Shown: piece by piece, positions 24,402-44,684 of the stretch
How positions within the stretch are numbered: the stretch's first letter is position 1
Layout: each line of letters opens with the position of its first letter
IMG/VR virus record: IMGVR_UViG_2619619135_000002
Source: a virus
Taxonomy: Duplodnaviria; Heunggongvirae; Uroviricota; Caudoviricetes
Strand: one strand, 5' to 3'
Length of the DNA: 45,104 nt
Program-made: the position numbers and the translations under genes
Notes under the pieces: model-generated
Told to the model about the DNA's origin: nothing
Database searches by the model: none
What the model saw: only the letters and a program-made list of their open reading frames with translations

Positions 24402-24785
24402 TTATCGTTTCAACTGAAAGTGAGGCCCGTCTTTCAGTGTTTTCCAGTCCCCGCCCCATTCGATGGCAGTTCCCAGCTCTGCGGCAGCCTGCTTAAACGC
24501 CTGCGCGATTTTCTCGTACAGAGGCCAGTCCCATGACACCTGGCTACCAATGTAGGCCACGACATCCACCGCATCACCGGTCAGGTGGCGGCTGTTCATG
24601 GTCTGGCTCTTACCTTCTGCAACCAGCTGTTTCTGGCGATACTTACTGCGCAGACCTTCCGTAATACCGAAATCAACCTCCGTCAGCTCCAGTGCACGGC
24701 GAACGACAGCAACCAGCTGTGGTTTAACGCCCTCCAGATTTTTTTCACTGCGACGACTGAATCTGAATTTACCCGACATACTCAC
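24402..24785 (-). CDS. Endolysin, peptidase M15 (L-alanyl-D-glutamate / D-Ala-D-Ala peptidase-type)
   Basis: 127 aa with ...SRHLTGDAVDV... and ...WGGDW... segments typical of zinc M15 phage endolysins; last gene of the lysis cassette. Confidence 0.75.
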   Translation of the reverse strand: MSMSGKFRFSRRSEKNLEGVKPQLVAVVRRALELTEVDFGITEGLRSKYRQKQLVAEGKSQTMNSRHLTGDAVDVVAYIGSQVSWDWPLYEKIAQAFKQAAAELGTAIEWGGDWKTLKDGPHFQLKR

Positions 24786-25057
24786 CTCAGGAATGGAAAG
24801 ATTTTTGTGACGTTCCCACGTGCGCGTATCACCAGCACGCAGAACAGCAGATTAAAAAACACCTGGAACCAGTCTGTTTCTAACGGGCGACCACACAGAT
24901 AGCTGAGTGGAACAAAGCCATAAAGCAGCATCAGCAACCAGGCCAGCCATGACATCAGCGGTTTATGTCTGGAATCACGGCGACGATAAAAAAAGAGCGT
25001 CAGCACGATAACCGTGCTTAACGCCACATTCAGCAATCCGGGAAGGTTACTTAACAT
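24782..25057 (-). CDS. Small membrane protein in the lysis cassette (possible antiholin or lysis accessory)
   Basis: Start set at MLSNLPGLL, preceded by GGAGGAGG SD; two or three hydrophobic segments; overlaps the holin stop and endolysin start. Confidence 0.55.
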   Translation of the reverse strand: MLSNLPGLLNVALSTVIVLTLFFYRRRDSRHKPLMSWLAWLLMLLYGFVPLSYLCGRPLETDWFQVFFNLLFCVLVIRARGNVTKIFPFLR

Positions 25058-25439
25058 TGCCGCCTCCTCCACCCCGCAGGCGGGAGAACAGGCCGGACAC
25101 CAGCGATGCAATATCCTGCTGGTGGATGAACGAGAGAATCTTCACCGACACCACTGACACCAGTACTGCACACAAGGCGTCGACAGGTGCACCGTCAAAC
25201 TCTGTATGCTTTACCAGCCAGGATGCCAGAACCTCTGCGCCCAGCACGCCGATAATGAACGACACCAGAAAATGCGCCGCCACACGCCAGGCTGAAAGCG
25301 CCTGCGGAATTGTTGCCACAAATAACGCCCCGGCGAACGCACCAAACACAATCCCGAAATCCGTTCCGGTAAACAGCCCGAATACCGTCGCCCCGCCGAG
25401 CGCCGCAGCCGTGCCGGAACCGGATAAGGGTTCAGACAT
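25047..25439 (-). CDS. Holin (130 aa, multi-TM, Gly/Ala-rich)
   Basis: Start set at MSEPLSGSG, preceded by CAGGAGAAAAAGT-ATG; three hydrophobic segments and a charged C-terminus; first gene of the lysis cassette. Confidence 0.7.
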   Translation of the reverse strand: MSEPLSGSGTAAALGGATVFGLFTGTDFGIVFGAFAGALFVATIPQALSAWRVAAHFLVSFIIGVLGAEVLASWLVKHTEFDGAPVDALCAVLVSVVSVKILSFIHQQDIASLVSGLFSRLRGGGGGNVK

Positions 25440-25457
25440 ACTTTTTCTCCTGTAAAT

Positions 25458-25479
25458 AAAAAAGGGCCACCAGCGGCCC
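25458..25479 (-). terminator. Rho-independent terminator immediately upstream of the holin
   Basis: Minus strand reads GGGCCGCTGGTGGCCCTTTTTTATTT. Confidence 0.65.
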
Positions 25480-25802
25480 GTAAAAAACAACACCCCGTCA
25501 AAGGCACCCGCAGATGCCTTCTGTGTGGTGTTATTCAGATTTGCGCCGTGCGTGGCGCGAAGAAATGAAATAAGACTTACCTGAAATTAAGGTTAATCCA
25601 GGGATTTAAACCATTTTTAATGCTTAGTAATATAAATGCGCCTCCCTGGAGGAGGCAGATGCTTATGATTCTTCATGGACTTTGTCCCGCGGCTTTAATC
25701 CGACGGCCGCGCCTTTTTTCACCCTCTCGCAAATTGCTAACCAAGGACCTTGTCCCACGAGTATTCCAGGATGCTCGTGTCTTTTTTTGTCCGGAGAAGA
25801 AA

Positions 25803-25826
25803 TAAAAAAAACCGCCTGGTGCGGCG
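25803..25826 (-). terminator. Rho-independent terminator downstream of the tRNA
   Basis: Minus strand reads CCGCCGCACCAGGCGGTTTTTTTTAT. Confidence 0.65.
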
Positions 25827-26082
25827 GTTAAGGATGTATTACCAGATTTTGCTTAGTATGTGATTAATCTCAATGTCACGTTTAGCGATGTTTACAACAT
25901 CGGGATGGCACATCACCGACCCTGCCAGGAAATACAAAATCTCCACCGACAATGCGCCATTCCGCTGTTGTAAAAAATCAGCACTGTGACTATAACTGGC
26001 TTCGAACCATAGCCAGAAGACAGATAAAAAACTGTCCCCACGCAATAAAAATACGCCAGTGCCGCAATAAGGCTTGTTTCTC

Positions 26083-26157
<75 letters not shown>

Positions 26158-26374
26158 ATACTGTACTGGCTTCCGGAATCACACGAATTACCAGGAAAGC
26201 CAGCACTGGTCCTTCAGACGATAGTAACACCCCTGTGAACACAAAAATAACCGTCTTCCGGACCAGTCAGAATACTAACGACAGTTTTTCAGACATCAAA
26301 AATATATTTGGTGTTCAGTTTTAAATATGTGTATACATCTGTATCAGAAATATACAACTTATATCATCACTGAA

Positions 26375-27421
26375 TTAAAAATCTTTCGTTATTTCTCTGG
26401 CCGTCTGATTAAAACGTTCCTCTTCCAGTTCCACGCCAATCGCCCTGCGTCCCAGCGACAGTGCCGCTTTTATTGTCGACCCCGACCCCATAAAAAAATC
26501 TGCGACCAAATCGCCTGGACGGCTGCTGGCAGTAATTATCTGACGCAACATATCCGCCGGTTTTTCACAGGGATGCTTACCCGGATAAAACTGCACGGGC
26601 TTGTGCGTCCAGACATCCGTATAAGGAACGACAGCCGATACGGAAAAATAACGCCGCAGTGATTTGTATTCCTCCAGCAGGCTGGCATATTGCCGGTTCA
26701 GTTCGCTGTATGTGCTGACCAGCTGGTGGTGTGGCTTTTCCAGTTCCCCGCGCTGATGTTTTTCTGCCGCAACACGCGCAAACAACGCCTGCAGTTTTCT
26801 GTAATCAGCTTCGCTCGGTAACTGCCACTGACTGGTGCCAAACCAGTGCGAAGTCATGTTTTTCTTTCCGGTGGCTTCAGCTATCTGTTTTGACGTTATC
26901 CCCAGTGATTCACGCGCATCACGGAAGTAAGAAATCAGCGGGGCCATGACGTGCTGTTTTAGCTCGCGTCCCTTTGCCGCATAGCCGTCATTTTTGGGCT
27001 GGTATGGCCCCTGATAATGTTCTGCAAACAGAATGCGTTCTGTTGCAGGGAAATACGCCCGCAGGCTTTCCTTGTTGCATCCGTTCCAGCGTCCGGACGG
27101 CTTCGCCCAGATAATGTGGTTCAGCACATTAAAGCGTTCACGCATCATGATTTCGATATCAGATGCCAGGCGATGACCACAGAACAGGTAAAGACTTCCG
27201 GCAGGCTTCAGTACACGCCAGAATTGCGCCAGACACTGGTCCAGCCATTTCAGGTAATCATCGTCGCCCTTCCACTGGTTATCCCAGCCCTCGGGCTTCA
27301 CTTTAAAGTATGGCGGGTCTGTGACTATCAGATCGACAGAATTTTCCGGTAAGGTCTGGATAAATTCCAGGCAATCAGCGTTGATTAACTCGCAACTGGA
27401 TATTTTTACAGTATTAGCCAT
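26375..27421 (-). CDS. Orphan DNA methyltransferase, beta-class amino-MTase (N6-adenine or N4-cytosine)
   Basis: 348 aa; catalytic motif IV DPPY near the N-terminus (LIVTDPPYF) and SAM-binding motif I FxGxG near the C-terminus (FFMGSGST), the beta-class order. No adjacent restriction endonuclease. Confidence 0.85.
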   Translation of the reverse strand: MANTVKISSCELINADCLEFIQTLPENSVDLIVTDPPYFKVKPEGWDNQWKGDDDYLKWLDQCLAQFWRVLKPAGSLYLFCGHRLASDIEIMMRERFNVLNHIIWAKPSGRWNGCNKESLRAYFPATERILFAEHYQGPYQPKNDGYAAKGRELKQHVMAPLISYFRDARESLGITSKQIAEATGKKNMTSHWFGTSQWQLPSEADYRKLQALFARVAAEKHQRGELEKPHHQLVSTYSELNRQYASLLEEYKSLRRYFSVSAVVPYTDVWTHKPVQFYPGKHPCEKPADMLRQIITASSRPGDLVADFFMGSGSTIKAALSLGRRAIGVELEEERFNQTAREITKDF

Positions 27422-31551: not shown

Positions 31552-31707
31552 TTACTCCTCAGGTTCGTAGACTGTGAAGACAGCGACCTCCGTCTGGCCG
31601 GTTCGGATTCGTACCTCGCAGAGGTCTTTCCTCGTTACCAGTGCCGTCACTATGACGGTTAAACAGATGACGATCAGGGCGATTAACATCGCCTTTTGCT
31701 GCTTCAT
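31552..31707 (-). CDS. hok: Hok/Gef-family type I toxin (HokD/RelF-like), 51 aa
   Basis: MKQQKAMLIALIVICLTVIVTALVTRKDLCEVRIRTGQTEVAVFTVYEPEE: single TM helix plus the conserved C-x-[VI]-R periplasmic motif; near-identical to HokD as recalled. The in-frame upstream extension in the listed ORF is likely leader (mok-like) sequence. Confidence 0.85.
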   Translation of the reverse strand: MKQQKAMLIALIVICLTVIVTALVTRKDLCEVRIRTGQTEVAVFTVYEPEE

Positions 31708-32554
31708 AGCCTGCTTCTCCTTGCCTTTCGGCACGTAAGAGGCTAACCTAGATTTGCCGTTCATAGATTGAGCCTCAGATTAATGTTAAGCGTCTTGCAG
31801 GACGCGTAATGTTAACTGGGGCTTTTCTCTATCTGCCTTTGGTGTTCATGCCTGAGACAGATAGCCTCAAGCACCCGCAGCCATTGTACTTAACTCCCGT
31901 TACCTCGCCAATATAAAATCAATCAGAAAGGCGATCCATAAGGACAATAGCAAGACAATAAATTGCCATTACCCGCAATAGCCAGCGCACATTTGAGGAC
32001 CAGCACGACAACTTTCTGTATCGGACGTACACCAGTCCTGATAAATACAAGGCGGTCTCATCAGTGATGAAATGCAACTATTGAGTACAGTTTCTCTGAT
32101 TTTTCTGTAAAACATGGAACACAACAACTAAATATAACTAGCACTTCTTAAGATGTACAAATTCAGAGTTAAGATAACGTAAGCAGTTTTCTCAAAACTA
32201 AGTGTAAATTTTTAATGAAGAGCAGTGCTATGCTCCTGATCATATATTCATTGTTTGGAACTGGAGGAATATTTAGGTTGCTGGAGTGGTTGATTGAATT
32301 TAAATCAACTAAGACAAAAACCAACAATTAAAGATATGTGGTATATCAGAAAACAACTATCCGTATATTACTACAGAATTAAATACTAGCAACAAAGCTG
32401 TCTTTATTGATTTTTTATCTGATATCGAAATAAATAAACATAAAATAACCAACTAATTAAAACAGAGACTCGACAATGAGCCTCTATCTATTGTAACAGC
32501 ACTTCCAAATTTATTTTAGTAAGATAATAGCATGGGGCATACTAGCCCCATCTT

Positions 32555-35059
32555 TTAAACCGTTTCATCAAGGAAATACTTAGACGAATCATCCTGTTTC
32601 GGTTGATATGTTTTTTTTGCAGAATTAAGAACTCTTCTTAGTTCTTTTCTTAACTCAGGTAAACGCTCCTGAAGAGGGTTAGAACACCATTGTGAAGGCA
32701 ACCCTCTTATAATAGCTTCGGAACAAAGCGGTGAAATAAGTTTTTCCATTTGATAATAGAAAGTTTTTGCTCGACTTACACGCATTGTGATCCTTTTTAT
32801 TACATCTCTTTCAGACTCAATTCTAGCACTCAGATCTCTTAATCTACTCCATACCTTAGCATCAGCAATATATGTATCATAAAGCATACACTCTATAAAC
32901 GTGAAATTACTAATAAGTTCTTTTGCAATATACCCCCCCAGCCGAGAAGGAATGAAACTTGATGAAGCTGTTGGATCTCCGTGATTTACGGTGAACAAAA
33001 ACCTTTTATTGCATAAATCAACGAGAACTCGATGCGTGAAAGAGTCACCTATACCAATTAACCTTAACTTTTCAGTTATTACCGAACCATCGATTTGTCT
33101 GAATCCGGGATCGCTTGCATACGAAACGATAACATTAAGAATGTACAGCCTCAATAATTGCATTTGTGTCACAGCTAAATTCGAATCAAACGGGTTCGCA
33201 ATAGTCGACGTTGACTCGCTATAAGTCAACTCAGTACCCAGTAATATAGCTCTAAATGCCTCATGACGTGGAAGAAGATATCTTCCTTGTTCTCTGAAAA
33301 TTTGTACTGCTTTACCTGGACTCGTATACCCTCTTTCTAAGAACTCACGAGTCATACGTAATGCTAATCGAACATCATCCGTAGCAAGAACTTCAATACG
33401 TGTTCCAATCTCACTTCCCAGCACAGACCCACTAATAATATCGACTAATTGTGATATATCATCCAATACAACTTTAGCGCCATTTTCTGCAATAAAATTT
33501 CCACTTTTATTACTTGTCATATACTTTACTAGTGCAAAGCGTTTTGCAATCACACTACTTATTCTCGGTGGATCTATTTGTATAACTTCAAAATCGAAAG
33601 CATCTATAGCAGGTGAGTTTTTATGTTTGATAAATGTAGACTGCCTCAATGAAAGTACTAAATTTAATGAAAGCGCTCTGGAAATTGAAAATGACTCGGT
33701 AAATATCCGGGACTGGATATCATCAAACTCGATCTGATCAACGTTATCAATAACAAGAAAAAAAGATGTCTCTTTTGTAACGCGACTTATTATTTTATCA
33801 ACATAAGGTTTTATCTTTTTATATTGTTCATATAAAAAATCCGAGATTCTGGTATTTTTTTGATCCTCACTCAATAAAAAAAGAGGTCCTGATTTTATCG
33901 CCTCAATATCTTCTCGAAATGCATCAAATACAAAATCCTTATTACTCAAAACAGGATGCTTATTGATATATTCCAGAATTGATTTATAAATAAAATCGAC
34001 TATTGAACTTTCTGATGGATTATCTAGAAAGTCTATATGAACCCAATGCGGCGTCAAGATATCACATTGATTTGAAAAAAACTCTTTTATTCTAACCTTT
34101 CTCATGTAATGAAGAAATGTTGTTTTACCTGCACCTACAGTCCCAAGTAACAAGATCGCGAGAGGTTTGTCATTCCTGACTTTTATTTTTTTCTTCCCTT
34201 TAACCTGAAACTTATCAACTATTCTTTTTGTATCTTTATCATTAAGCCCTTTTAGTACTTCACCATTCAGCACACTTGAACGCCTACCTATATTCATTCT
34301 AATTTTACTATCGAATCTCATAGTTTCTGGTGTTGAAACATAACATTTATCAAAGGAGTCTTCATCCAAGTAAAGTATAGAATCAGAAAAAGCCAACCTT
34401 AATTCATCAGCAATCAAATGATATATTGGATTATTTGTCTGTGTTCTGTTTTGTTGCGAATAAAAATTTCTTAATTTTCTAAATTCTATTTGATTTTCGA
34501 CGCGACCTAAAAGTGCTGTTTCTAGACTTCCTGATATAACATTTTCACGACTAAGTAAATCATAGAATTCTTGATAATTATCATTTAAGCAATCTTCTAA
34601 CGACCAGAACACAAGCGCTATTGAATCATTAAATTTGACATTGTCATGCCTCTGAGCTGCAAAACATGCCCATACATTTCCATTCGTAGCGACAGCATAA
34701 TCTATACCAAATTTCCTGGCGTAATCTCTAGCTTGTATTATCGCTTCACCAAGATCACTTTGTAAAAAACTATTACTTAGCTTTATTTTTCTTTTTCCTG
34801 GAATTGTACTAAAGCTTGGCCCTGCCTTTTTAGCTTCAACAACAAGAGCAATATTAGCTGTTTTTAGTATATAATCAGCATAAGTTGTCAAACCATCTTC
34901 AGTCACATGCTCTTCTGGTTTTATATCACTATCAGTCCACATCAAGACTTCCTTTAATACCCGATCTATCACTTTTAGTCTTGTGGCTGCTTCATTTGCA
35001 TTTTCTAATTGTAAATGATGATAAGCTGATAATATTTCCGAAATAAATGTTTTCTCCAT
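32555..35059 (-). CDS. Large nuclease-NTPase fusion protein: N-terminal PD-(D/E)xK (HsdR-N/Mrr-like) nuclease domain plus STAND/NACHT-like P-loop NTPase plus alpha-helical C-terminal domain; candidate antiphage defence protein
   Basis: 834 aa. Residues about 60-77 TYADYILKTANIALVVEAKK give the D...E-x-K nuclease signature, followed by ...YAVATNGNVW... Walker A at about 306-313 (GTVGAGKT); Walker B at about 433-442 (FFLVIDNVDQ, a D-x-h-D-E/Q pattern typical of STAND NTPases). The gene and its flanks are visibly AT-rich relative to the rest of the prophage. Confidence 0.6.
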   Translation of the reverse strand: MEKTFISEILSAYHHLQLENANEAATRLKVIDRVLKEVLMWTDSDIKPEEHVTEDGLTTYADYILKTANIALVVEAKKAGPSFSTIPGKRKIKLSNSFLQSDLGEAIIQARDYARKFGIDYAVATNGNVWACFAAQRHDNVKFNDSIALVFWSLEDCLNDNYQEFYDLLSRENVISGSLETALLGRVENQIEFRKLRNFYSQQNRTQTNNPIYHLIADELRLAFSDSILYLDEDSFDKCYVSTPETMRFDSKIRMNIGRRSSVLNGEVLKGLNDKDTKRIVDKFQVKGKKKIKVRNDKPLAILLLGTVGAGKTTFLHYMRKVRIKEFFSNQCDILTPHWVHIDFLDNPSESSIVDFIYKSILEYINKHPVLSNKDFVFDAFREDIEAIKSGPLFLLSEDQKNTRISDFLYEQYKKIKPYVDKIISRVTKETSFFLVIDNVDQIEFDDIQSRIFTESFSISRALSLNLVLSLRQSTFIKHKNSPAIDAFDFEVIQIDPPRISSVIAKRFALVKYMTSNKSGNFIAENGAKVVLDDISQLVDIISGSVLGSEIGTRIEVLATDDVRLALRMTREFLERGYTSPGKAVQIFREQGRYLLPRHEAFRAILLGTELTYSESTSTIANPFDSNLAVTQMQLLRLYILNVIVSYASDPGFRQIDGSVITEKLRLIGIGDSFTHRVLVDLCNKRFLFTVNHGDPTASSSFIPSRLGGYIAKELISNFTFIECMLYDTYIADAKVWSRLRDLSARIESERDVIKRITMRVSRAKTFYYQMEKLISPLCSEAIIRGLPSQWCSNPLQERLPELRKELRRVLNSAKKTYQPKQDDSSKYFLDETV

Positions 35060-35768
35060 AGATTATTCTCTCTATAAAAAATAACGAAAATTTTTCTGAT
35101 TAGTTTTACCGCATTTAGTTACAATAACCTAGCTATGTCAAGTCTGATGTTATCCTAAATTTCATTTTTGTTATATTATCCTCTAATTCTTAAGGCACAC
35201 GTTTGAAAAGCGTCGACTTTCTCCTGTATGCTCTGAAGGTATCATTTACTCTGATTTTTCACGCAGTGTGCCGGATAGTTTTCTGTCAGGATAGAGCCCT
35301 AGATGACACGGATGACCGCTGATGACCTGAATATGATCATGTCGCTAACATTCGCCATGGGTAATATTATTAGCCAATCCCGCCCCATCTGTTCATTCTG
35401 CTCCTGAATGCCCCCCCCCGAAGTCAGCAGACTATGGCCTCGTTGCTGACATGCTCAGAGCCAACTCCTTACCCCCTTACGTAGAAGCAATCTCAGGCAC
35501 CATTAGTGATTACGGTAACCGAGCAGTTGTATTACACCGAACCGACTACCGCTATCATCAACACCTATCTTTGGGGCATAAAAGCGTGGCATAAAGGAAG
35601 CAACTAGGCAGTGATTATGTAAGTACATCTGTAAAACGGACCATCCATTTTAAATATCCTCTGATCCCCCTCAATATCCACCTCTAGCACAAAGCGGACA
35701 ACCACGCTAGCTCTCCCCTGTACCATGAAAATTTCAATTCACATATGTATTAATGCTCTTTAGTCTCT

Positions 35769-36191
35769 TCACTTCAATAAATACTGAGAATCCCCCTGAT
35801 AAAACGACAATATGCGCTGCATAACTTCGCTTTTACGGCACTCACTACAAATTATATTATGATGCCTGTCGTAGCGACGTATTTCTCCATCAGGTAATGA
35901 CCAGATAAGGTCCGGATCAACCGCAGATGGTTTCTTCAGCTTTGCCCTTGAGAGCTTTTTACGGGCATTTTGCCAGTCCTTACGCGCCTGTTCAGACGGG
36001 AATAACCCGTAACCAGAGTTGTATACATCGCCACTGGCAACCAGCTCTCTGGCCAGAACGCTCATCAGATATCTTGTTGCCCCAGTTTTAGCTTCCAGTT
36101 GTTGTAACGTCTCGCGCCCACTCTGGCGTACGAGTTCAACAACCTGCCCTTTAATTTTTTCCCGCTCTTCTTGTGTAAAAACTTTTGCCAC
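35769..36191 (-). CDS. Hypothetical protein (140 aa), possible HTH; occupies the position downstream of the replication initiator
   Basis: ORF of normal GC content with ...TLQQLEAKTGATRYLMSVLAREL...; no firm family assignment. Confidence 0.45.
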   Translation of the reverse strand: MAKVFTQEEREKIKGQVVELVRQSGRETLQQLEAKTGATRYLMSVLARELVASGDVYNSGYGLFPSEQARKDWQNARKKLSRAKLKKPSAVDPDLIWSLPDGEIRRYDRHHNIICSECRKSEVMQRILSFYQGDSQYLLK

Positions 36192-44583: not shown

Positions 44584-44684
44584 CAAGCAACGCACTCCCT
44601 AGTCGATAACAAGGAGTGCGCCTTTGATATCCCCCCCCCTGAGAAGCGGCACTTTACGCGTTGACAGGATGAGGTCTGACGTGA
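44584..44684. other. Candidate attachment-site / int 3' retroregulation region
   Basis: Lies directly downstream of int, where lambda carries sib and the attP core; contains an inverted repeat GCACTCC-N14-GGAGTGC (44592-44619) and a C9 tract (44631-44639). The exact att core cannot be determined without the other prophage end. Confidence 0.3.

Follow-up and report, generated by a model that had tools for sequence, protein, structure and literature searches.

DS-14 is a single-gene antiphage system of DefensePredictor (DeWeirdt et al., Science 2026, PMC13092281; preprint 10.1101/2025.01.08.631726), and a gene related to it is described here. The gene lies at 32555-35059, on the minus strand, in the IMG/VR virus record IMGVR_UViG_2619619135_000002, a stretch of 45,104 nucleotides that is called the window in its full length. 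According to Table S6 of the DefensePredictor study, DS-14 (RMOR) consists of the single gene WP_040091717.1 (816 residues), and it is entered as defensive (TRUE) and as a 'remote defense homolog'. For the test in MG1655, the gene was carried by a low-copy plasmid together with its native promoter region. Three of the 24 phages were affected, and the -log10 efficiency of plating was 4.70 for Bas50, 3.70 for Candy and 1.15 for RB69 (Table S7). The result was replicated, and HHpred identified a PDDEXK nuclease at residues 27-167 (D65, ExK 76-78) and an ORC1-like AAA+ domain at residues 270-569 (Table S8). An HHblits match to bNACHT09 was also given, with a probability of 99 and 54% of the protein covered.

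The defence role of the family was shown recently, for this one protein, and its mechanism was not reported. The window gene is very probably a defence gene of the DS-14 family. It represents a second, well-diverged subfamily (47% identity) in the prophage slot of DS-14. The present analysis adds that the family is large, has no conserved partner and occupies three unrelated phage cargo slots, including that of Pseudomonas aeruginosa Pf prophages. It also adds that the ATPase has ORC/Cdc6-type features and is without the repeat sensor that defines Avs proteins. Comparison of the two Escherichia coli subfamilies is a direct route to the cue sensed by a minimal nuclease-ATPase.

Relationship to DS-14 and extent of the family

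The open reading frame (ORF) at 32555-35059 starts with ATG and encodes 834 residues and a stop codon, as confirmed by the ORF list. Given the base composition of the gene, 834 consecutive sense codons have a probability of about 10^-30, and hundreds of full-length homologues are found. Thus, the ORF is a real gene. The nuclease, Walker A and Walker B motifs quoted in the preliminary description are all located exactly where it had placed them. Residues 59-78 are TYADYILKTANIALVVEAKK, which carry D62, E75 and K77. ATNGNVW corresponds to residues 124-130, the Walker A motif GTVGAGKT to residues 306-313 (K312), and the Walker B motif FFLVIDNVDQ to residues 433-442. The low G+C content that had been remarked on is 0.343 for the gene versus 0.512 for the window.

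DS-14 was located by a supplementary-table search with the Walker A peptide. The E. coli protein P0089 is 99.7% identical to the first 399 published residues of WP_040091717.1, and both have 816 residues. The window protein and P0089 show 47% identity, 66% positives and 1% gaps over 820 columns, and the identity is 27% in the linker. The homology is collinear over the full length, with the same nuclease-ATPase order, in a single gene, and in the same DUF977 prophage slot. The D...ExK and Walker motifs that are intact in DS-14 are likewise intact in the window protein. The differences are that the identity is 47% only, that the gene has the opposite orientation in the slot, and that the protein belongs to a separate subfamily. 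The single-gene antiphage candidate of the preliminary description thus has an experimentally defensive, collinear relative. The same description could place the protein in no named family; such a family now exists, and the protein is assigned to it by homology to P0089. The window gene adds a new and diverged member to a family that is validated but mechanistically unexplored.

A profile search against 1.84 billion representatives gave 2041 clusters (50% identity) at E<=1e-3 and 579 at E<=1e-30. The complete matches are nearly all 800-870 residues long and align end to end, and at least 396 homologues were obtained from the homology search. The window-type gene is present in eight of the 5426 complete E. 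coli genomes, where it is annotated as 'hypothetical protein', and the DS-14-type gene is likewise present in eight, as 'P-loop NTPase fold protein'. Both labels can be replaced by 'DS-14-like defence nuclease-ATPase'. Two window-type copies look broken (NZ_CP010171.1 H7, NZ_CP043414.1 H6); one is interrupted by IS1 (IS1A), and the other has one additional base and is annotated as two separate proteins. Among the eight DS-14-type copies, that of NZ_CP010125.1 is likewise divided in two. The cluster of the window protein occurs in Klebsiella, Enterobacter and Serratia too.

The relatives are carried by various elements. P0089 (47% identical to the window protein) lies in the DUF977 slot of another Rac-like prophage, in opposite orientation. 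Relatives from Serratia (47%), Vibrio (47%) and P. aeruginosa (59%) are found in a P2-like prophage between the portal gene and gpA, in a corticovirus-like prophage, and at the end of Pf filamentous prophages, respectively. P0002 (72%) is located on an IncFII-type contig (L017), beside an integrase gene and RES-Xre pairs. The Cupriavidus relative (60%) lies in a region like an integrative and conjugative element, and the Aeromonas relative (62%) is a lone insertion between a type VI secretion cluster and thrC. A scan of viral contigs gave 35 additional loci.

All genes within 3.5 kb were clustered for 52 loci. The recurrent neighbours are P2 portal, terminase and gpA genes in 16 loci (members 21-46% identical), DUF977 in 10 loci (members 100% and 46-48% identical) and Pf genes in eight loci (members 58%, 55%, 23% and 22% identical). 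The P2 and DUF977 backbone genes are found on either side of the family gene, and DUF977 adjoins the 46-48%-identical relatives in either orientation. No conserved partner gene was found in these loci, in which phage backbone genes alone recur. These results are in agreement with the monocistronic unit first described. They also show that the family recurs in prophage hotspots beside unrelated neighbours, namely in the lambdoid DUF977, P2 gpA-gpQ and Pf inovirus slots. In P2, the interval from gpA to gpQ is a known hotspot for anti-phage systems (Rousset et al., 2022, PMC9122126).

Two kinds of neighbour were considered as a general partner, the 97-residue and 231-residue upstream genes of Pf prophages and the KAP_NTPase gene of P2 prophages. 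Both were rejected, because backbone genes alone recur across the subfamilies. In the Pf prophages L005-L009, the homologue is preceded on the same strand, 55 nucleotides away, by the 97-residue and 231-residue genes (e.g. L005 6875-7168 and 7251-7946). These have no Pfam match and may be either Pf backbone genes or a lineage-specific partner. In the Serratia P2-like prophage (L018/L019, 15827 to the end), a KAP_NTPase/NPHP3_N-type gene adjoins the CI repressor gene; it would be a putative second defence cargo in one phage.

A distant sister clade is P2-borne (L040, L043, L047, L054 and L055; 21-27% identity, about 885-910 residues). It has the same nuclease-ATPase body, with HSDR_N above the cut-off, and a C-terminal S1 domain, which extends the helical tail or takes its place. 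The relatives in L047 and L043 stand alone with no partner. The 'S1/HSDR_N' gene (WP_001678413) that Rousset et al. (2022, Table S5) list in the P2 hotspot of E. coli is matched to this clade by Pfam labels and position only. In E. coli it is often listed beside a KAP_NTPase gene in that table, and it is not in the table of tested systems.

In the 50,697 isolated phage genomes, no match was found by DNA or by tblastn at 1e-10, despite the full-length PHROG 14719. Within the collections searched, all occurrences of the gene are in prophages or in other elements that are integrated or plasmid-borne. With PADLOC v2.0.0, neither the query nor 10 distant representatives nor six viral-contig relatives had a real match. 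Thus, the family is not among the systems and candidates catalogued up to 2023. The family may well be among the 589 clades of the STAND census (Lee...Gao, PMC12803255). No direct match was found in the Kranzusch nuclease-NTPase preprint, the domain-centric discovery paper, the BREX diversity paper or searches for KAP NTPase and nSTAND, and the accession WP_001349602 was not found in the papers searched. The Gifsy prophage defence protein GiPD474 (PMC12724215) was considered and set aside; it is ParA/MinD-like and unrelated.

Domain architecture and conservation

An AlphaFold model was obtained on the family alignment (predicted local distance difference test (pLDDT) 82.9, predicted template modelling score 0.77). 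The coordinates below are all on the minus strand. According to motifs, profiles and the model, a PD-(D/E)xK nuclease domain of HsdR-N type corresponds to residues ~20-200 (34460-35002). The catalytic D62, E75 and K77 are encoded at 34829-34876, and the core order in the model is helix, three strands, helix, strand. A helical linker of residues 201-295 (34175-34459), assigned from the model and conservation, shows the lowest conservation, and its pLDDT is <50 at residues 260-272 and 283-296. The P-loop AAA+/STAND-like NTPase core, defined by motifs and the model, corresponds to residues 296-515 (33515-34174). The Walker A motif is encoded at 34121-34144 and the Walker B motif at 33734-33763; the two are separated by a long helical insert and are 126 residues apart. 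R472 is located after strand 4.

The C-terminal parts were assigned from the models. The helical lid corresponds to residues 516-610 (33230-33514) and contains an ORC/Cdc6-type motif, D-D-V-R-L-A-L, at residues 561-567 (33359-33379). The lid is followed by a winged-helix domain of residues 611-705 (32945-33229) and by a C-terminal helical hairpin/tail of residues 706-834 (32558-32944), of which the last 12 residues are disordered. A separate model of residues 510-834 has a pLDDT of 86.7. Its fold matches are to winged-helix domains only, and no TPR-like repeat-sensor fold was found in the fold search with it. In place of the helical C-terminus of about 350 residues that was described at first, the models show a helical lid, a winged helix and a helical tail of about 115 residues, and no large sensor.

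In Pfam, the window protein has sub-threshold matches to NACHT (19.1 bits, cut-off 26.7), HSDR_N_2 (18.3 bits) and AAA_16. Among 51 homologues that are 45-72% identical, AAA_16 is matched in 44, HSDR_N_2 in 39 (best E 4.7e-7) and nSTAND_NTPase5 in 37, and weak matches are found to NACHT in 22 (best E 3e-6) and to KAP_NTPase in 19. HSDR_N is matched above the cut-off in distant relatives (E 4e-14). PHROG 14719, whose function is not known, matches the protein end to end. NCBIfam gave P-loop noise only for the window protein. PDB sequence searches with the protein and with the family profile gave P-loop matches only (G-alpha, IF2 and FtsY). The fold searches with the full model were dominated by the ATPase, with no independent structural match for the N-terminal nuclease. 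Therefore, the nuclease assignment rests on the profiles, the motifs and the HHpred result of the DS-14 authors. The PD-(D/E)xK nuclease proposed earlier is supported by the HSDR_N_2 and HSDR_N matches, and the P-loop NTPase by the invariant Walker motifs and the weak AAA_16, nSTAND5, NACHT and KAP matches.

The structural match figures are 17.0-14.6 for Cdc6/Orc, 13.6 for TnsC, 13.3 for BrxC, 12.2 for CED-4, 11-12 for plant and animal NLRs, 11.3 for EfAvs5 and 10.7-11.1 for RdrA. According to the model, the predicted fold of the ATPase is most like that of Orc1/Cdc6, and its similarity to NLRs is weaker. As the fold is nearer to ORC/Cdc6 and the weak profile matches are nearer to STAND-type models, the ATPase is placed between the two.

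For conservation, 98 full-length representatives, 19-43% identical to the query, were aligned with the query (99 sequences). D62, E75, K77, Q109, G306, K312, D438, N439 and D441 are present in all 99, R564 in 98 and R472 in 97. The conserved positions of the nuclease are E23, T26, R27, D62, E75, K77, Q109, Y113 and N126, and those of the ATPase are G306, K312, D438, N439, D441, R472, P498 and R507. This pattern indicates that the catalytic residues of both domains are under strict purifying selection. In the lid motif G-[ND]-[VMI]-R-x-A-L, G561 is found in 70 of the 99 sequences, N/D562 in 88, A566 in 67 and L567 in 85, in addition to R564. We take this motif to be the sensor-2 signature of Cdc6/Orc1 (e.g. 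SGDVRKAL in human Cdc6). In the alignment, the Walker B form D-x-x-D-Q with an arginine straight after strand 4 resembles that of NACHT and NB-ARC. In the arginine-finger region before strand 5, K/R480 is found in 58 sequences and R/K481 in 36. The sequences diverge fairly evenly over the length of the protein, with the linker as the most variable part and the winged helix and tail somewhat above the enzymatic domains. No hypervariable receptor region was found along the alignment.

Across the AAA+ core, the lid and the winged helix, which follow one another in this order, Orc1/Cdc6, BrxC and TnsC give the best structural matches, and the lid motif G-[ND]-x-R-x-A-L is shared with Orc1/Cdc6. 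Unlike Orc1/Cdc6, the window protein is fused to a nuclease and has a long helical insert separating the two Walker motifs, an Arg instead of Asn/Thr after strand 4, and no strictly conserved arginine finger. Nor does the window gene belong to a replication, BREX or transposon operon.

In the case of Avs3 and Avs4 (nuclease-STAND-TPR; PMC12803255), an N-terminal nuclease is likewise followed by a P-loop oligomerization module, in a single gene that is often on mobile elements. The window protein is, however, about half the size and has no TPR-like or other repeat sensor. As its C-terminus consists of lid, winged helix and short tail instead of a sensor, the comparison with Avs is an analogy only. 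In the case of bNACHT, the likeness consists of the weak NACHT matches in 22 of the 51 members, the Walker B form D-x-x-D-Q and the Arg after strand 4, whereas the window protein is under the Pfam NACHT cut-off (19.1 versus 26.7 bits) and has the ORC-type lid motif. The likeness to bNACHT09 is that given for DS-14 by the HHblits search of its authors. Of the Avs/bNACHT-type architecture suggested in the preliminary description, the order of effector and NTPase is retained. The repeat sensor and an Avs profile were not found, and the ATPase is nearer to ORC/Cdc6.

HsdR of type I restriction systems is related through the nuclease family (HSDR_N_2/HSDR_N), with NEAxTR in helix 1 and D...ExK...Q. 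In contrast to HsdR, no SF2 helicase motor was found in the protein, and there are no HsdM or HsdS neighbours in the contexts examined.

Mode of action and alternative explanations

We consider a mechanism in which the ATPase module would restrain the N-terminal nuclease and keep the protein inactive in uninfected cells. A phage-specific cue, which may be a phage protein or a nucleic-acid structure, would be read by the part composed of the ATPase, lid, winged helix and tail. The cue would then permit the protein to assemble with itself in an ATP-dependent manner, as do Orc1/Cdc6, TnsC, RdrA and NLR/Avs proteins. The assembly would juxtapose the HsdR-type PD-(D/E)xK domains, and the DNA would be cut and phage replication stopped. 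The domain make-up, the conserved catalytic residues, the lack of a partner gene, the recurrent carriage in phage slots and the phage resistance given by the relative are observed. From these and by analogy, we infer that the protein is autoinhibited and oligomerizes, that its substrate is DNA, and what kind of cue it reads. Taken in full, the mechanism is evenly poised between holding and failing. That DS-14 acts on so few phages speaks for a specific cue.

Several points weigh against reading the protein as a cue-gated defence protein of this kind. No Avs profile was among the PADLOC matches of the query or the 16 relatives, and the model of residues 510-834 contains no large repeat sensor of the Avs kind. 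No strictly conserved basic residue is present at the usual arginine-finger position in the 99 sequences. The C-terminal parts are, in the alignment, only slightly more variable than the enzymatic domains, which seems unlike fast-evolving receptors. The best structural relatives, ORC/Cdc6, TnsC and BrxC, assemble on DNA and not on protein ligands, and the sister clade has a predicted C-terminal S1 nucleic-acid-binding domain; both points would fit direct action on DNA equally well. The tables of PMC13092281 contain no DS-14 mutants, biochemistry or mechanism, and its main text is silent on DS-14. In addition, at 47% identity, the window protein may differ in phage range or be inactive.

Direct action on DNA is the alternative that survives best, and we regard it as possible, although rather unlikely. 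The protein would be a restriction-like enzyme, whose ORC/Cdc6-like ATPase and winged helix load on phage DNA and whose nuclease cuts it, with no protein trigger and no methylase. The target could be phage DNA as it enters or replicates, a pattern of modified bases, or an intermediate of replication. Every recognizable module is of a nucleic-acid type (the HsdR-N nuclease, the Orc1/Cdc6-TnsC-BrxC-like ATPase and the winged helix), which is in favour of such action, together with the ORC-type lid motif (R564 in 98 of 99), the S1 domain that ends the distant sister clade, and the rather even conservation without a repeat sensor. A winged helix after the lid, however, belongs to every STAND/ORC module and need not bind DNA. 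The action of DS-14 on three of 24 phages is narrower than generic DNA recognition would predict. Furthermore, no methyltransferase or other self-protection partner lies beside the gene, and discrimination between self and non-self would need another basis.

A related and more doubtful proposal is that the family, rather than being an NLR-type protein receptor, is an immune nuclease derived from ORC/Cdc6 that assembles in an ATP-dependent manner on a phage nucleic-acid structure and cuts in place. If so, phage DNA would be discriminated from host DNA in a methylase-free, initiator-like manner. An origin, a replication intermediate or a modified genome would be read via the winged helix and tail, or via S1 in the sister clade.

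A function that serves the element itself is very improbable. The protein would be a replication or recombination factor of the prophage, or a nuclease against host or competitor DNA in lytic growth. The gene comes immediately after the replisome-organiser and DUF977 genes and is read in the same direction as they are, and the best fold matches are replication initiators. However, the gene is found in eight of the 5426 genomes, against 884 with DUF977-like DNA; its G+C content is foreign, and it adjoins a decayed integrase gene. The relatives differ in orientation and lie in elements that are unrelated to each other (P2-like, Pf, corticovirus-like, IncFII-type, ICE-like and lone chromosomal), two of the eight E. 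coli copies are broken, and DS-14 protects MG1655 as a prophage-free construct. Least probable of all is an addiction or toxin-like module that stabilizes its element, with the nuclease as the toxin and phage resistance as a side effect: the gene adjoins the hok/sok killer system, RES-Xre toxin-antitoxin pairs surround a relative on one contig and the nuclease would be lethal if unleashed, but no conserved small neighbour is present as an antitoxin in the 52 loci, the gene is kept alone on plasmids in MG1655 (PMC13092281), and genomes with a broken copy have kept the element.

The cargo slot, its flanks and expression signals

The element that carries the gene is a Rac/Qin-like lambdoid prophage integrated beside yccA/tusE in E. 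coli. According to megablast searches of both flanks against the complete E. coli genomes, the backbone homology to other E. coli prophages ends at ~32150 on the hok/sok side and at ~35685 on the DUF977 side. Since the homology stops at these points, the limits of the cargo are ~32150-35685, and not ~31800-35770 as estimated in the preliminary description, although the insertion and its low-G+C gene are as it stated. The cargo of about 3.5 kb is found only in the eight genomes that have the gene. The 620 nucleotides 5' of the gene are only partly AT-rich; the G+C content of 35271-35685 is 0.475, i.e. not low.

The gene lies between the replication module and hok, as first described, and both flanks are prophage backbone. 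On the left, the hokD/mok ORF and the sok antisense RNA are located at 31552-31876 (minus strand), according to Rfam and the hokD annotation. The sok RNA corresponds to 31702-31876 (Rfam, 110 bits), with hokD adjoining. On the right, the DUF977 gene at 35769-36191 (minus strand; ORF list and annotation) is the end of the replication module, and this side holds DUF977, replisome-organiser, YdaT and Cro/CI genes. In 884 of the complete E. coli genomes, DNA that resembles this DUF977 gene is present.

A remnant of a decayed tyrosine-recombinase gene (N-terminal part) was detected by tblastn and translation at 35374-35586 on the plus strand, divergent from the defence gene. Its translation, PRSQQTMASLL ... 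INTYL, contains stop codons, and a C9 run is located within it at 35411-35419. The remnant shows 35% identity over 77 residues (E 7e-4, tblastn) to the integrase on the IncFII-type contig L017, which sits divergently beside the 72%-identical homologue. As the decayed integrase resembles this intact one, the cargo probably arrived as a module of integrase plus gene.

The DUF977-hokD slot holds other genes in other strains (L015 5615-7402, L014 7947-9296 and L016 5576-7555). In ATCC 25922, the slot contains a DUF4209 protein gene in opposite orientation, which matches the PADLOC candidate PDC-S39 (E 2e-102). In SCEC020001, a PD-T7-1 homologue (E 7e-157) is found with a 200-residue integrase-family gene ('site-specific integrase') and a hypothetical gene. 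In DETEC-P666, two unrelated hypothetical genes encode 320 and 333 residues without a PADLOC match, and these may be further defence candidates. The slot is a cargo hotspot, and its PD-T7-1 and PDC-S39 contents agree with the earlier remark that the position is typical of defence cargo.

An AT-rich region with a G+C content of 0.318 is located upstream of the gene at 35060-35270 (minus strand), and it is presumed to be the promoter region from its composition and a TTGACA. This TTGACA, read as a -35 element in the preliminary description, is present at 35141-35136 on the minus strand, 77 nucleotides 5' of the ATG. Its role as a promoter element is not supported by the scan. No acceptable -10 element accompanies it, and the region has about as many promoter-like sites as chance would give (15 found, 14.4 expected), so that a promoter has not been established. 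Directly 3' of the stop codon, the terminator scan flagged the hairpin ATGGGGC-n6-GCCCCAT at 32532-32551 (minus strand), which had been noted before. It has seven pairs, five of them G-C, and its tail is only moderately T-rich. The scan gave no enrichment of terminator-like sites in the region (three found, 1.8 expected).

Elsewhere in the prophage, at ~24750-27240 and other positions, an orphan DNA methyltransferase gene, a TerB-family gene, Bor, DicB, a DUF1398 gene and hokD/sok are present. A second C9 run is located at 44631-44639, near the integrase end of the window.

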